A stretch of 64,000 nt of DNA from a virus (IMGVR_UViG_3300043438_000976:100027-164026); one strand, 5' to 3'; shown: positions 9,447 through 16,327, numbered from the stretch's first letter. The notes: generated by a model not told the origin, from the sequence alone. Translations and numbers: made by a program.

Positions 9447-10256
9447 ATGAAAAATACAAACTATATCACACACTCAACTTTTGGAGACATTGTTTATAGT
9501 CTCTGCGTTATGCGAATGATTGGTCCAGGCGACCTATACGTGAGATTAAACTATCACGATGAATTTGCACAAAAAGTTTTAGGGTGGCCTAACGCAGGCC
9601 CAGCAAGTGGCAGACTAACACAAAAAGACTTCGACATTGTAGCACCATTGTTAGAAGCACAAGACTATATTGGCAAAGTTGCAGTATGGAAAGACGAAGT
9701 AGACGACTTTCCTCAACTGCTAGATCATTGGAAACAGCACCTAATCCGCGGTTGGCAAGGCAATCAAACAGAATGTTATGCACTTGCTATGGGTTGGAAC
9801 ATTCACGATCCAGAAATTAAAAAGAAATTGTTACACGAGCCTTGGTTGACTCCCGTACAACCAATTCATATTCCAGGCAAGCCTATTATTGTGAACAGAA
9901 CTAACAGGCATCTACACGGAGCAGAAGGCGGCGGCGGATGGATTGAGCAAAAGTTCATTGAGAATCAGATCGGAGAATATGGTGCGTTTGTTGGCACACC
10001 TGACGAACATGCTAGCTTTGAAGATACATTCAAAACAAAAATACACTATCAGAAAACAGAAGACCTGCTAGAAGTTGCAAGACTTATTCAAGGCAGTGAA
10101 ATGTTTATTGGAAACCAGAGTGCCGCATTGAGTGTTGCAATCGGTTTAGGCAAGACTTATTGGTGCGAAGTACGTGCTGATTACGAACAGACAAAAACAC
10201 CACACGGTGGCTATGGAGACACATGGTTTCCCCGTGCTAACGGCTTTTACTTTTAA
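9447..10256 (+). CDS. glycosyltransferase family 9 (heptosyltransferase)-like protein
   Basis: C-terminal block FIGNQSAALSVAIGLGKTYW resembles the GT9 motif IGNDSGpmHLAAAlG. Confidence 0.35.
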   Translation: MKNTNYITHSTFGDIVYSLCVMRMIGPGDLYVRLNYHDEFAQKVLGWPNAGPASGRLTQKDFDIVAPLLEAQDYIGKVAVWKDEVDDFPQLLDHWKQHLIRGWQGNQTECYALAMGWNIHDPEIKKKLLHEPWLTPVQPIHIPGKPIIVNRTNRHLHGAEGGGGWIEQKFIENQIGEYGAFVGTPDEHASFEDTFKTKIHYQKTEDLLEVARLIQGSEMFIGNQSAALSVAIGLGKTYWCEVRADYEQTKTPHGGYGDTWFPRANGFYF

Positions 10257-10264
10257 GGACATAT

Positions 10265-10909
10265 ATGTACGCAGTTGTAAGTTTAAACGACGAAAAATAT
10301 CAACCGCTTGCTGATCTAACATGGAATCAGAACAAGCAACAGTATTGTGAACGTCACGGATATCTAGGAATAAATTGGACCAGCGGTTTTGATAAGAACA
10401 TAACTGGAGGTTTTGAAAGATGCAGATTAATCAAAGAGTTGTTTGAAACACAGAAAGAAGTTGAGTGGGTTTGGTGGACTGGCTGCGATGCTATGATCAC
10501 AAATTTCACAATCAAAATTGAGGATAAAATTCTTCCAGATTATGATCTAATTATAGCAACAGACTGCAATGAAATTAACAACGACAGTTTCTTAATTAAA
10601 AATACAGCCTGGAGCAAAAAGTGGTTGCAAGACATATATAACAGCTGGCCTAAGTATAAAACTGCAATGTTTTTAGAACAACAGGCTATGATTGACTCGT
10701 ATCCAGACAATAAAGATAAAATTAAGATTGTTCCGCAACGATACTTGAATGCTTATAAGAATGACCTGTACCCGCATCAAAGCAAATACGATCTACTAGG
10801 TAACGATGGTACTTGGCAAAACAGTGATTGGTTAATCCACTGGCCCGGAACTAGTTTGGATCTTCGCCTCCAACTGGCTAGACATTTTATGAACGAAGTA
10901 GTAAAATAA
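10265..10909 (+). CDS. GT34 / GMA12-MNN10 family nucleotide-diphospho-sugar transferase-like protein
   Basis: blocks EVEWVWWTGCDAMITN and LIIATDCNEINNDSFLIKNTAWSKKWL match the EW.WW.D.DA / IA.D.NG.N.GSF.IRNS.WS signatures. Confidence 0.5.
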   Translation: MYAVVSLNDEKYQPLADLTWNQNKQQYCERHGYLGINWTSGFDKNITGGFERCRLIKELFETQKEVEWVWWTGCDAMITNFTIKIEDKILPDYDLIIATDCNEINNDSFLIKNTAWSKKWLQDIYNSWPKYKTAMFLEQQAMIDSYPDNKDKIKIVPQRYLNAYKNDLYPHQSKYDLLGNDGTWQNSDWLIHWPGTSLDLRLQLARHFMNEVVK

Positions 10910-10912
10910 ACT

Positions 10913-13950: not shown

Positions 13951-14888
13951 AAAAAGTTTTAATTACAGGCGGCACAGGATTTATAGGCCACAATTTAGTT
14001 AAAGAGTTTTTAAAAGATCACAAGGTGGTGTGTCTTGTTCGTCCGGGATCTAAAAATTTAGATCGTTTGTTAGACGTATACAGTATGGTTGAATTTGTTA
14101 ACCATAACATTAGAGAACCATTACCAAATATACACGACATTGATATTATACTACACGCAGGTGCTAATCCTAGTGCAGCCGACAGTATCAACGACCCGGT
14201 GGGTGCTGTAACAGATAATGTTATTGGTACTGTAAACTTATTAGAGTTTGCTCGAAAATCAAAAGTAGAAAAGTTTGTTTACTACAGTTCCGGCGAAGTG
14301 TTTGGTCCTATTCCAATCGGGCAAGATAGTTATGAAAACGATGCATACAATTCTAACAGTCCTTACGCCGCAAGTAAAGCAGCAGGCGAAGAATTATGTG
14401 TTTCTTATAGTAAATCATTTGGGCTTCCGGTAAGTATTATTCATATCAATAACACATTCGGTCCAATGTGCCAGTCTAATAGATTTCCAGTTATTGCTAT
14501 GTCTAAAATTTTAAAGGGAGAACCTTTATCTATTCATGTAGGTCCTAGCAAAGCAATAGGCGGACGTAGATGGTTTCATGCAGAAGATGTTGCATTACAT
14601 ACTAGATTCATTTTAGATAATCAAAAAGACATTTGTGAAAAATGGAATAGTGCAGGTAGGAAGTTTGTTAATAACGCAGACCTTGCTCAGATTATTGCCA
14701 AGCTAATGAACAAAGAAATTAGTTTAGAATATGTGCCAGTCGATCGGCCTGGACACGATTTATGCTTTTCAGTAGATCCCTGGAAGTTATATGATAGAGG
14801 TTGGGTAGAACCTTCGAGTTTAGAGGATAGACTAAAACAAACAATTGATTGGTACTTGGCCAATCCAGAATGGTTATCAAGGAATTAA
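13947..14888 (+). CDS. NAD-dependent epimerase/dehydratase (extended SDR)
   Basis: N-terminal ITGGTGFIGHNL Rossmann motif and YAASKAAGE (YxxxK) catalytic motif. Confidence 0.65.
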   Translation: MKKVLITGGTGFIGHNLVKEFLKDHKVVCLVRPGSKNLDRLLDVYSMVEFVNHNIREPLPNIHDIDIILHAGANPSAADSINDPVGAVTDNVIGTVNLLEFARKSKVEKFVYYSSGEVFGPIPIGQDSYENDAYNSNSPYAASKAAGEELCVSYSKSFGLPVSIIHINNTFGPMCQSNRFPVIAMSKILKGEPLSIHVGPSKAIGGRRWFHAEDVALHTRFILDNQKDICEKWNSAGRKFVNNADLAQIIAKLMNKEISLEYVPVDRPGHDLCFSVDPWKLYDRGWVEPSSLEDRLKQTIDWYLANPEWLSRN

Positions 14889-14889
14889 A

Positions 14890-15828
14890 ATGATTAAAAC
14901 AGTATATGTAACAGGGTGTTTAGGTTTTATAGGTTATCATGTAACACTGGCCTGTTTAGAACGAGGATGGCACGTTCGTGGCATTGACAAAGGCACCTAT
15001 GCAGCCAATTGGAATTTGCTAGACGACTTAAAAAAATATAAAAGATTTATATTTGAAAACAAAGATATAAATGAAATAGACAAATTGTATGAGTGTGATT
15101 ATTTCATTAATACCGCTGCCGAGACTCATGTAGATAACAGTATTACCAGTAGCAAAGTATTTTTAGAAAGTAACATTAACGGAGTTCATCATATTTTAGA
15201 AAAAATAAAGGCTGCTAGAAAACAGCCTATATTCTTACATTTTTCTACAGATGAAGTTTATGGAGATATTGAAAAAGGATTCCATACAGAAGAAGATCTA
15301 TTAAAGCCTAGCAACCCGTATTCTGCTACAAAGGCATCGGCTGACATGTTAATTACAGCTTGGGCACGTACCTACGGTATATCTTATGTAATTGTTCGTC
15401 CTACTAACAATTACGGTATTGGACAATATACTGAGAAGTTTATTCCTCACACTATAAAATATTTGAGTTTAGGTAAAAAGGCAACATTGCACGATAACGG
15501 CACACCAAGACGTACATGGTTACATGCCAGTGATACAGCAGCCGCAGTTATTAAAATTATAGAAGTAGGCGTTGTAAACGAAGTATATAACATTAGTGGA
15601 AACTACGAAGAACAAAATATTGTAGTTGCCAGGAAGATTATTAAAGCAATGGGCCTAAAGGGAGATCCAGATCAGTATCTAGACACTACAGAAAAACGCC
15701 CAGGTCAAGATGTACGATATGCAATTGACGATGCTAAATTACAACACCTTGGCTGGAAACCAGTTGCTAAGTTTGATTCAGAGTTGAAAAGTATCGTTAA
15801 GTATTATACTAAAAACTTTATTTGGTAA
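14890..15828 (+). CDS. NDP-hexose 4,6-dehydratase-like extended SDR
   Basis: VTGCLGFIGYHV, TDEVYG and YSATKASAD motifs; start set at MIKTVYVTG (AGGAA SD) rather than the upstream overlapping ATG. Confidence 0.6.
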   Translation: MIKTVYVTGCLGFIGYHVTLACLERGWHVRGIDKGTYAANWNLLDDLKKYKRFIFENKDINEIDKLYECDYFINTAAETHVDNSITSSKVFLESNINGVHHILEKIKAARKQPIFLHFSTDEVYGDIEKGFHTEEDLLKPSNPYSATKASADMLITAWARTYGISYVIVRPTNNYGIGQYTEKFIPHTIKYLSLGKKATLHDNGTPRRTWLHASDTAAAVIKIIEVGVVNEVYNISGNYEEQNIVVARKIIKAMGLKGDPDQYLDTTEKRPGQDVRYAIDDAKLQHLGWKPVAKFDSELKSIVKYYTKNFIW

Positions 15829-16327
15829 AGCCGTTATTGTAGTTAACATTATCAAACTCTATTAAACTTGCACGAGGATTCTTAATCCAAAAGTCAACAG
15901 CATTTATAATCTGTTGATACGGAATTGAATCATACTGTGTCCAGTTTTCAAGGAATCCCATTTTCAGCAACAACATTGGAAATTGAGATTCCTTTTTTAA
16001 TTTCTTATGTTCAATTTCAATAAGTTTTTTTGCAGTAGCATAACGAATAATGTCTGGATTAGGGTAGTCAGCAGCCATAGATCCGCAAGTTATAATAGAA
16101 GTCTTATTATATAAACGTTTTAAAAATTCATATTGTATAGTGTGAAGGTGTAAATTGTTAATGAACAGATCAGCAGTCTCTGCTAAGTTGACAACTTCTT
16201 CAAACTTTTCAGGCAGTGTATAACCATTTGATCTAGACACACCCACAACCTCGTGACCTGATTGTGTTAAGTAATTGAAAAAGGCGAGCCCGAGCCCGCC
16301 TGTGTGTCCTGTGATTACAACTCGCAT
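15818..16327 (-). CDS. short NAD(P)-binding Rossmann-fold protein (reductase-like)
   Basis: MRVVITGHTGGLGLAF N-terminal dinucleotide-binding motif; 169 aa. Confidence 0.35.
   Translation of the reverse strand: MRVVITGHTGGLGLAFFNYLTQSGHEVVGVSRSNGYTLPEKFEEVVNLAETADLFINNLHLHTIQYEFLKRLYNKTSIITCGSMAADYPNPDIIRYATAKKLIEIEHKKLKKESQFPMLLLKMGFLENWTQYDSIPYQQIINAVDFWIKNPRASLIEFDNVNYNNGFTK

Follow-up and report, generated by a model that had tools for sequence, protein, structure and literature searches.

Why would a virus carry the two halves of a transketolase (TK) in the midst of genes for the synthesis and transfer of a deoxysugar? The question is raised by IMGVR_UViG_3300043438_000976:100027-164026, a stretch of 64,000 nucleotides (64 kb; hereafter the window) that is part of a T4-like marine myophage. 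Eight genes of its plus strand, from 9447 to 15828, follow one another with overlaps or with gaps of at most 8 nt. They encode, in this order, a glycosyltransferase candidate (orf269), a GT34-family glycosyltransferase, an E1-type 3-dehydrase, two TK-like subunits (TKN and TKC), an FkbM-family methyltransferase and two extended short-chain dehydrogenases/reductases (SDR_A and SDR_B). Three of the junctions, E1/TKN, TKN/TKC and FkbM/SDR_A, are ATGA start/stop overlaps, and FkbM begins 1 nt downstream of the TK pair. We consider it rather probable that the eight genes constitute one operon, which would divert the nucleoside diphosphate (NDP)-glucose of the host into a rare branched deoxysugar and then transfer this sugar. 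The identities of the genes, their catalytic motifs, the operon structure, its conservation and the co-occurrence of its members are direct observations. Indeed, all the open reading frames (ORFs) of the original prediction exist where it had placed them, and the families that it named (GT34, RfbH, Transketolase_N, Transket_pyr, FkbM, two extended SDRs and a short SDR on the opposite strand) were reproduced by profile searches.

TKN (12229..12837, 202 amino acids) and TKC (12834..13313, 159 amino acids), both on the plus strand like the rest of the operon, would be the pyrophosphate-binding subunit (PP) and the one that binds pyrimidine (Pyr) in a thiamine diphosphate (ThDP) enzyme, the former being matched by Transketolase_N (6.8e-7) and DXP_synthase_N (7.6e-6) and the latter by Transket_pyr (1.1e-17). 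For both subunits the best sequence match among solved structures is ChTK, the split TK of Carboxydothermus hydrogenoformans, whose chains of 309 and 341 residues are aligned over residues 48-210 in the case of TKN (6yak, 1e-12) and over residues 36-193 only in the case of TKC (6yaj, 4e-15). The active-site histidines align, as do the ThDP/Mg motif (S116-D117-G118...N147 in TKN) and the cofactor-activating Glu (AEQ) of TKC, but the phage pair lacks about 100 residues of the PP chain and the whole transketolase C-terminal (TKC) domain, named as in PMC7661550, and the three-domain PP-Pyr-TKC architecture of transketolases is not found. Furthermore, the motif G-x-G-R-D-x-D-Y-x-H-(L/D)-G-x-S-H-W of the Pyr subunit aligns with T-H-x-x-x-x-x-G-E-D-G-x-(T/S)-H-Q of TK, the equivalents of His461 and Asp469 being replaced by Gly and Leu, and those of His473 and of the C-terminal Arg being kept. 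We take His461 and Asp469 of the E. coli enzyme to have roles in phosphate and acceptor-hydroxyl binding. The best scores against the NCBIfam transketolase models are 81 and 50 bits, for an equivalog cut-off of 488.

Among 54 TKN sequences sharing 35-55% identity with the query, no change is seen at H19, H49, D117-G118, N147 and Y191 and hardly any at H76, S116 and H190, which argues that TKN is under selection as a ThDP enzyme. This subunit alone has 4778 database relatives, which places the cluster far beyond chance; the top 120 are all of 202-211 amino acids with at least 77% identity, and a search of 1.84 billion cluster representatives returned 113 TKN clusters at E below 1e-30, nearly all of 190-230 amino acids. 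Some homologues are fused to methyltransferases, and others contain HNH homing-endonuclease domains within the same predicted protein.

Two other identities were considered for the pair and rejected. A single ordinary transketolase broken by a frameshift is contradicted by two intact and conserved ORFs, translationally coupled through the ATGA overlap, which are separate genes in every related locus. For a YerE-type ThDP lyase of the decarboxylase/acetohydroxyacid synthase (AHAS) superfamily the domain content offers only a marginal TPP_enzyme_C match (E 0.0058), which does not extend beyond the ThDP motif; Transketolase_N and Transket_pyr are the matches that reach significance. The split transketolase of the original prediction is therefore correct in that the enzyme is of the TK type and encoded by two genes, and incorrect in that it is not an ordinary split transketolase but a minimal form devoid of the TKC domain.

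With which enzymes does this pair work? Relatives of TKN occur in at least 443 IMG/VR viral contigs, and gene content was counted in the best 80 of them. TKN and TKC are adjacent in 80/80 loci, and they are accompanied by SDR_B in 65, SDR_A in 49, a different SDR of 269 amino acids in 43, E1 in 41, GT34 in 38, FkbM in 35 (a Methyltransf_24 gene being present instead in other loci) and orf269 in 16, so that orf269 and FkbM are accessory members. At least one extended SDR is found in all these loci, except a few truncated contigs. Three architectures recur: [SDR_B]-E1-TKN-TKC-FkbM-SDR_A-[SDR_B]; GT34-SDR269-[MT24]-TKN-TKC-SDR_B, which is devoid of E1; and GT34-E1-SDR269-[MT24]-TKN-TKC-[GT34]-SDR_B, SDR269 and MT24 standing for the 269-residue SDR, which occupies the position of SDR_A, and for the Methyltransf_24 protein. 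The 3-dehydrase E1 is thus optional around the TK pair and, since the E1-free loci keep the dehydratase, the TK pair, an SDR and GT34, the constant partner of the pair is the enzyme making a 4-ketosugar, together with a second SDR.

In the contigs of close relatives the module lies at the same site, between a tRNA array and an AhpD/AhpC pair, and TKN is its best-conserved gene (93% identity to the window), followed by TKC (87%), E1 (81%), GT34 (76%) and SDR_B (68%). These contigs lack orf269, FkbM and SDR_A and encode in their place the SDR of 269 residues, a protein of the Methyltransf_24 family, another GT34 and a PP-loop-like protein of 304 amino acids, and further relatives have added a GT17-family transferase or bear a methyltransferase on the opposite strand. 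The downstream flank of some relatives encodes a Rieske-like protein of 278 amino acids, a QueC-like protein (weak Pfam match) and a rubrerythrin, the same site being occupied in other relatives by the 304-residue protein, read as PP-loop-like with a SGGSES motif; the window encodes no homologue of any of these. The flanking nitroreductase, Rieske-like and PP-loop-like genes are not required by the module because they have no homologue in the window.

Deposited phage genomes are silent on this module: a megablast comparison with 50,697 phage records gave no match to the cluster, and when phage records were searched by tblastn for the two TK subunits no deposited phage genome proved to contain the pair. 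The short tblastn fragments that were returned (Listeria and Salmonella phage labels, unannotated human-gut contigs and an Acinetobacter 'phage' assembly, with 27-38% identity) were judged to be ordinary bacterial split TKs filed wrongly as phage. An E1 homologue with 39% identity lies inside a large sugar cluster of the Synechococcus phages S-B05 and S-H68; neither the OM43 phage Melnitz nor the Pelagibacter phage HTVC008M has an E1 gene.

The residue at the Asp469-equivalent position of the Pyr subunit follows the presence of E1. Across short-type pairs it is Leu in 45 of the 51 loci with E1 nearby and Asp in 23/23 E1-free loci, the latter being counted only when 5 kb or more of sequence flanked them on either side. 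A neighbour-joining tree of TKN+TKC contains one viral Leu clade and one viral Asp clade, and the pair of a marine Ca. Actinomarina genome (Leu, E1 adjacent) falls outside both. In transketolase, Asp469 presumably contacts the hydroxyl of the carbon adjacent to the acceptor carbonyl, which corresponds to C3 in an NDP-4-ketosugar. The pattern is what an attack on the C4 ketone would lead one to expect, Asp going with a sugar that has its 3-hydroxyl and Leu with a 3-deoxy sugar. Asp469 of E. coli TK is a known determinant of acceptor specificity, and the D469T substitution shifts TK toward non-polar aldehydes (PMC5073344). Two TKN/TKC pairs per island are present at about 9000-13500 in two IMG/VR contigs (L068 and L069), a Leu-type pair beside E1 and an Asp-type pair beside GT34 and the 269-residue SDR; these islands look as if two branched sugars were made.

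One answer to our initial question would be that the pair is an ordinary auxiliary gene of the pentose-phosphate pathway, or a supply of sedoheptulose-7-phosphate for a heptose, standing beside a conventional 3,6-dideoxyhexose pathway. The Joint Genome Institute labels the homologues 'transketolase', the pair conserves the ThDP/Mg motif as well as catalytic His and Glu residues, and work on ocean viromes has assigned viral tkt to the pentose-phosphate pathway (PMC4053976); a heptose would moreover suit the HldE-like kinase and nucleotidyltransferase at 34176-35421, the GT9-like protein of the window and the SIS (GmhA-like) gene of the Actinomarina locus. Such an enzyme is hard to reconcile with a best score that falls far under every transketolase equivalog cut-off, with the loss of the TKC domain and the Gly at the His461 position, with a pair always found amid NDP-sugar SDRs and coupled to E1 by a start/stop overlap, with a residue at position 469 that follows the presence of E1, and with homologues fused to methyltransferases. 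In addition, the prophage copies consist of an SDR, the TK pair and a methyltransferase only. We therefore hold this answer to be very improbable.

We thus return to the synthesis of a branched sugar, for which the operon encodes enzymes that would act before and after the TK pair. SDR_B (14890..15828, 312 amino acids) is a genuine NDP-glucose 4,6-dehydratase of the RmlB type and would catalyse the first step of the pathway: it aligns over its full length with 2hun (8.6e-69), the catalytic motifs of RmlB being complete (STDEVYG, YSATK and NNYG..Q..EKFIP), and its scores bring it closer to RmlB (TIGR01181, 297 bits) than to the CDP-glucose dehydratases (TIGR02622, 73 bits). The TIGR01181 score is under the equivalog cut-off of 365 and does not point to one nucleotide. 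Its start is most likely the ATG at 14890, which gives it the length of its homologues, and not the TTG at 14845. SDR_A (13947..14888, 313 amino acids; TIGR01181, 179 bits for the same cut-off; 2hun, 1.8e-37) is also RmlB-like in sequence and keeps YAASK, but its Thr-Asp-Glu triad reads Ser-Gly-Glu (SSGEVFG), the catalytic Asp being replaced, and it is a putative ketoreductase.

The E1 protein (10913..12232, 439 amino acids) is predicted to be a DdhC/RfbH/AscC-like NDP-4-keto-6-deoxyhexose 3-dehydrase dependent on pyridoxamine 5'-phosphate (PMP) and on a [2Fe-2S] cluster. It is matched by PF01041 (2e-73), which stands for the DegT/AHBA-synthase fold, and exceeds the cut-off of the RfbH equivalog NF011936 (428.1 bits for 423), and its best solved structure, over the full length, is the Yersinia E1 3bcx (2e-92). 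Its SFYPAHH motif aligns with that of 3bcx, His214 lying on His220, the residue that is changed in the H220K mutant 3bb8 (SFYPAKH), and the motif, once as SFYPPHH, is found in 52 of the 53 E1 homologues of the related loci. Cys186/187, 245, 247 and 260 (EDCCD, CYC and C-GKRF) align with the Fe-S cysteines of the Yersinia enzyme, which we take to be Cys193, 251, 253 and 261, so that all four are kept. The PMP dehydrase with a Cys cluster that the original prediction had described is thus borne out, including by the retention of the His and Cys residues whose loss would have spoken against it, and the predicted enzyme is of the E1/SpnQ type, neither a ColD-type dehydrase nor an aminotransferase. 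No E3 partner (AscD/DdhD) was found in the cluster, in the related loci or among the window ORFs scanned. This is no argument against the function of E1, because its homologue SpnQ presumably works with general cellular reductases.

A short classical SDR of 169 amino acids, encoded on the minus strand (15818..16327) and convergent with the operon, which it overlaps by 11 nt at its end, was considered as a surrogate for E3. It has the motifs TGHTGGLG (TGxxGxxG) and YATAK (YxxxK), adh_short (1.8e-6) covers its N-terminal part only, and as a plain classical SDR devoid of Fe-S or flavin motifs, and not syntenic, it was rejected for this role. The extra reductase that had been counted with the cluster does exist; its linkage to the cluster is not consistent, its homologues in related phages lying beyond the tRNA array and far from the sugar genes, and it is probably outside the sugar module.

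The pathway that we propose on these grounds combines these activities in an order that we deduce, as we do the nucleotide carrier and the acceptor and donor of the TK pair. SDR_B would first convert the NDP-glucose of the host into an NDP-4-keto-6-deoxyhexose, from which E1 would remove the 3-hydroxyl with electrons delivered by the ferredoxin or flavodoxin systems of the host, because the operon encodes no E3. TKN and TKC, assembled in a heterotetramer, would form a ThDP-bound two-carbon carbanion that would attack the C4 ketone and generate a tertiary alcohol. The donor of the two carbons could be a ketose phosphate or hydroxypyruvate, leading to a glycolyl branch such as is proposed for the split TKs of Streptomyces (PMC12247030), or pyruvate, leading to an acetyl branch as in yersiniose; TKN is matched by both the Transketolase_N and the DXP_synthase_N models. 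SDR_A would then reduce a remaining ketone, FkbM would methylate the sugar, and the soluble GT34 and GT9-like transferases would attach it to an acceptor in the cytoplasm. The addition of a two-carbon branch to an NDP-4-keto-(3,)6-dideoxyhexose is the most likely function of the TK pair. Of the original prediction, the 3,6-dideoxy, two-carbon-branched and possibly methylated hexose and its transfer remain the best reading of the comparative data, the ThDP enzyme falling outside the YerE (yersiniose) family.

The same logic operates in the yersiniose pathway of Yersinia pseudotuberculosis (DdhB, DdhC=E1, DdhD=E3, YerE, YerF), with a 4,6-dehydratase, 3-deoxygenation by an E1 that is a clear homologue of the phage protein in its His and Cys motifs, ThDP-dependent two-carbon branching at the C4 ketone and ketoreduction. 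The phage version differs by its RmlB-like dehydratase, by the lack of E3 and of a nucleotidyltransferase in the cluster, by its being encoded in a phage and, above all, by the branching enzyme: YerE belongs to the AHAS/decarboxylase superfamily and contains flavin adenine dinucleotide (PMC12247030), whereas the phage enzyme is a PP + Pyr heterodimer of the TK superfamily. The branching of NDP-ketosugars is established or proposed for ThDP enzymes of three superfamilies, split-gene TKs included (PMC12247030). In the miharamycin and amipurimycin clusters of Streptomyces, two-gene enzymes of the TK superfamily stand likewise among sugar-modifying genes and are proposed to add a hydroxyacetyl group to a ketone, producing a tertiary alcohol (PMC12247030). 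The split TKs described so far carry the TKC domain on their second chain (PMC7661550), and the phage Pyr subunit does not; the Streptomyces enzymes are compared here by their description only. The context of the phage pair also separates it from canonical split TKs, since it consists of NDP-sugar genes and not of pentose-phosphate genes.

We go one step further and advance, as a proposal that falls just short of being probable, that TKN/TKC is an undescribed family of minimal two-domain enzymes of the TK superfamily with NDP-4-ketosugars as acceptors, mostly borne by phages (T4-like aquatic myophages and unrelated prophages). One active-site residue (Leu or Asp) would tune it to 3-deoxy or 3-hydroxy substrates, and it would make a new deoxysugar with a branch at C4 (glycolyl or dihydroxyethyl), which virions or infected cells would display.

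Several observations weigh against the synthesis of a branched sugar by this operon. The NDP-glucose synthase and the E3 that the original prediction had noted as missing have not appeared: neither the related loci nor the window ORFs scanned, a set without the small ORFs and limited to this part of the genome, yielded an RmlA-/RfbF-type nucleotidyltransferase, an E3 or a ferredoxin. In E1 the Cys motif has an insertion of 5 residues before its last Cys, the GT34 protein is devoid of the first Asp of its DxD motif, and the role of SDR_A as ketoreductase is a guess. The Leu/Asp pattern is suggestive, with roughly two independent events in its favour and one that departs from it: in four loci (L117, L126, L127 and L139), which form a subclade of the Asp type with E1, the dehydrase has apparently been gained and the residue has not changed. 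Finally, sugar branching by TK-type enzymes is so far a matter of prediction, in the Streptomyces cases too (PMC12247030).

To what would the sugar be attached? The operon proteins have no membrane segments, and the cluster encodes no Wzx, Wzy, flippase, polymerase or initiating transferase; the module must therefore use an acceptor already present in the cytoplasm, for which a lipid-linked glycan of the host, a protein of the phage or of the host, and DNA are the candidates that we deduce. The transferases give some indications. The GT34 protein (10265..10909, 214 amino acids) scores well above the gathering score of PF05637 (6.4e-22; 78.9 bits for a cut-off of 23), in agreement with the original prediction, and its PDB sequence matches are the plant xyloglucan xylosyltransferases XXT1/2/5 only (3e-9). 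Its WWTGCDAM aligns with WWMDSDAM of the XXTs, giving G-x-D where the D-x-D of a GT-A enzyme is expected; among the 19 of 56 viral homologue segments in which the pattern matched, the first position is Gly in 15, Glu in 4 and Asp in 0.

The soluble protein orf269 (9447..10256, 269 amino acids) is a candidate GT-B glycosyltransferase by its fold. It has no Pfam, NCBIfam or PHROG match at E below 0.01, and its 363 homologues are all unnamed, so that the GT9-like assignment made previously fails at the level of sequence families. At the level of the fold it holds: the AlphaFold2 model (pLDDT 91.8) retrieves with Foldseek, at the top of the PDB, the GT9 protein 3tov, WaaC 2h1h, WaaF 1psw and TibC 4rap (E 2e-5 to 1e-3, probability 1.0, TM 0.43-0.50). 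Its best viral structural match is a phage protein of 467 amino acids that joins this domain to an FkbM methyltransferase (TM 0.74, E 4e-14), and the fold is also found in proteins of Pithovirus and Klosneuvirus. At 34176-35654, on the minus strand and 18 kb from the cluster, overlapping ORFs encode a PfkB-family kinase, a cytidylyltransferase-like protein and a small cupin; it is a matter of speculation that this HldE/RfaE-like set makes another activated sugar, which the GT9-like protein might use as its donor. The methyltransferase of the operon (13315..13950, 211 amino acids) is, as had been proposed, of the FkbM family and would use S-adenosylmethionine (PF05050, 1.8e-9; TIGR01444, 41.7 for a cut-off of 37.7; phrog_8156, 5e-25), and has no relative among solved structures.

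The nature of these transferases, soluble, cytoplasmic and of the eukaryote or giant-virus type, could indicate that the phage decorates itself, either its virion proteins or hydroxymethylated bases of its DNA. Glycosylation of virion proteins occurs in chloroviruses and in some mycobacteriophages. The presence of the orf269 fold in the two giant viruses, its resemblance to the protein heptosyltransferase TibC and the position of the SDR-TK module directly upstream of terminase and portal genes in three prophage-like loci would agree with it. In the window, however, the operon has no structural genes beside it, the ORFs scanned include neither a hydroxymethylase nor any other gene for DNA modification, and nothing distinguishes protein from lipid acceptors; decoration of the phage itself appears to us unlikely, although not negligible.

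The alternative is a remodelling of the host surface, in which the altered sugar would be fed into the lipid-linked O-antigen, capsule or glycoprotein pathway of the host and would block superinfection or the adsorption of progeny to infected cells. This destination, which we regard as tentative and on balance doubtful, would explain a module devoid of its own Wzx, Wzy, initiating transferase and membrane segments, and it agrees with the interpretation given to the lipopolysaccharide (LPS)-type genes of pelagimyophages (PMC7029224) and with a hypervariable island in which GT34, GT17 and GT9-like transferases are swapped among relatives. The genome, however, is of the lytic, T4-like type, and GT34 and GT17 are atypical as bacterial LPS transferases.

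Cellular and prophage homologues bear on the same point. A search of 185,579 species genomes with a 13-sequence TKN alignment, the 54-sequence one being too diverse, found the short TK pair in just eleven metagenome-assembled or single-cell genomes (41-54% identity). Three of these genomes (assigned to Cloacimonas, Roizmanbacteria and Aquaspirillum) have SDR-TKN-[TylF-like methyltransferase]-TKC immediately upstream of a related set of terminase and portal genes, and one of the three loci also adjoins an integrase; these loci are prophages or binned phage contigs, and such an integrase-proximal position, classical for conversion genes, would favour an effect on the host surface. So would the Ca. 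Actinomarina single-cell genome, where E1-TKN-TKC is inside a surface-glycan locus with an initiating sugar transferase (Bac_transf), NeuB, the SIS (GmhA-like) protein, an SDR and TylF-type and FkbM proteins. Split TKs of ordinary length with an E1 homologue a few kb away occur in metagenome-assembled genomes of Bacteroidales, Bacillota and Methylomirabilis, and an SDR of the 269-residue type stands beside many cellular TK loci.

The cluster as a whole belongs to a familiar class, the phage glycan islands, and resembles the LPS-type islands of pelagimyophages and cyanomyophages, in which glycosyltransferase and deoxysugar genes occupy hypervariable islands (PMC7029224). The words 'transketolase' and 'dehydratase' are absent from the pelagimyophage paper (PMC7029224), and our literature search found no paper describing this TK module in phages. 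The split-TK cases of sugar branching are 13 predictions, all in Streptomycetes and none characterised (PMC12247030). Should the phage pair indeed branch NDP-ketosugars, no smaller enzyme would be known to do so and it would be the first outside the Streptomyces predictions, a useful scaffold for the chiral tertiary alcohols whose need is stated in PMC12247030; abundant aquatic phages would then possess all the tailoring steps that a rare sugar requires. The swapping of glycosyltransferases between close relatives suggests an arms race at the surface of the cell or of the virion. Furthermore, not every viral gene called 'transketolase' should be counted as an auxiliary gene of carbon metabolism: the pentose-phosphate reading of viral tkt (PMC4053976) is unlikely to apply to the short TK family, and part of the 'viral transketolase' signal of aquatic viromes may correspond to glycan tailoring.

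The surroundings of the operon are those of a pelagic myophage related to Melnitz and HTVC008M. A cyclase-like protein of 684 amino acids (19385-21439, minus strand) shares 51% identity with Melnitz and 36% with HTVC008M, and rIIA, NAMPT and the curli proteins CsgG/CsgF are among the typical genes of these phages found in the window. The 684-residue protein is annotated as an adenylate/guanylate cyclase in both phages, and its counterparts in related contigs have CHASE2 and Guanylate_cyc domains. Nearly all genes of the window are on the minus strand, the sugar operon being one of the few plus-strand blocks, and the GC skew is positive over 10-16 kb, which fits plus-strand coding in an otherwise minus-strand genome. 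The island lies between an array of 34 tRNA genes (275-8351) and the AhpD/AhpC pair. The sugar operon yielded no plus-strand promoter comparable to the sigma-70 set of the tRNA side, and an Rfam search of the 1.1-kb spacer upstream of the operon gave tRNA-like signals only.

The tRNA array, on the minus strand, covers most amino acids. One of its genes, of 86 nt, has an odd anticodon loop (3471-3556), another is a tRNA-Ile(tat) of 92 nt (1347-1438), and five ORFs without Pfam match, of 179-208 amino acids, are scattered among them. Just upstream, two more tRNA-like signals (8361-8445 and about 8500-8600) are below the Rfam thresholds, with 30.7 bits for the tRNA-Sec model and a GGTTCGAATCC T-arm near 8540. 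At 8887-9359 on the minus strand, three tandem near-consensus sigma-70 promoters (TTGACA-17-TATAAT/TACAAT, with 12/12, 11/12 and 11/12 matches) form a repeat of 84-90 nt directed at the array and are followed by an ORF of 49 amino acids (9097-8948) and a strong terminator (8918-8887). On the other side, 16327-17764 (minus strand) encodes an AhpD-like protein (TIGR00777, 121 bits), a weakly SGNH/GDSL-like protein of 131 amino acids and an AhpC/peroxiredoxin, the AhpD/AhpC pair being kept at about 90% identity in several close relatives.

Farther away, and still on the minus strand, 25097-28455 encodes a FecR-domain protein with the curli secretion components CsgG and CsgF, and 30227-33322 a heme oxygenase, two paralogous ferredoxin-dependent bilin reductases and then a beta-ketoacyl synthase; a 4'-phosphopantetheinyl transferase is found at 60841-61146. 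These genes are unusual for a phage whose host is probably non-photosynthetic. An Rfam match to a permuted (two-piece) tmRNA at 63763-63986 (minus strand), of full model length and with 47.4 bits for a gathering score of 47, may be a phage tmRNA. Finally, NAMPT and an NMNAT-Nudix fusion (42888-46539, minus strand) form a phage NAD+ salvage pair, with rIIA just upstream (39441-41618).

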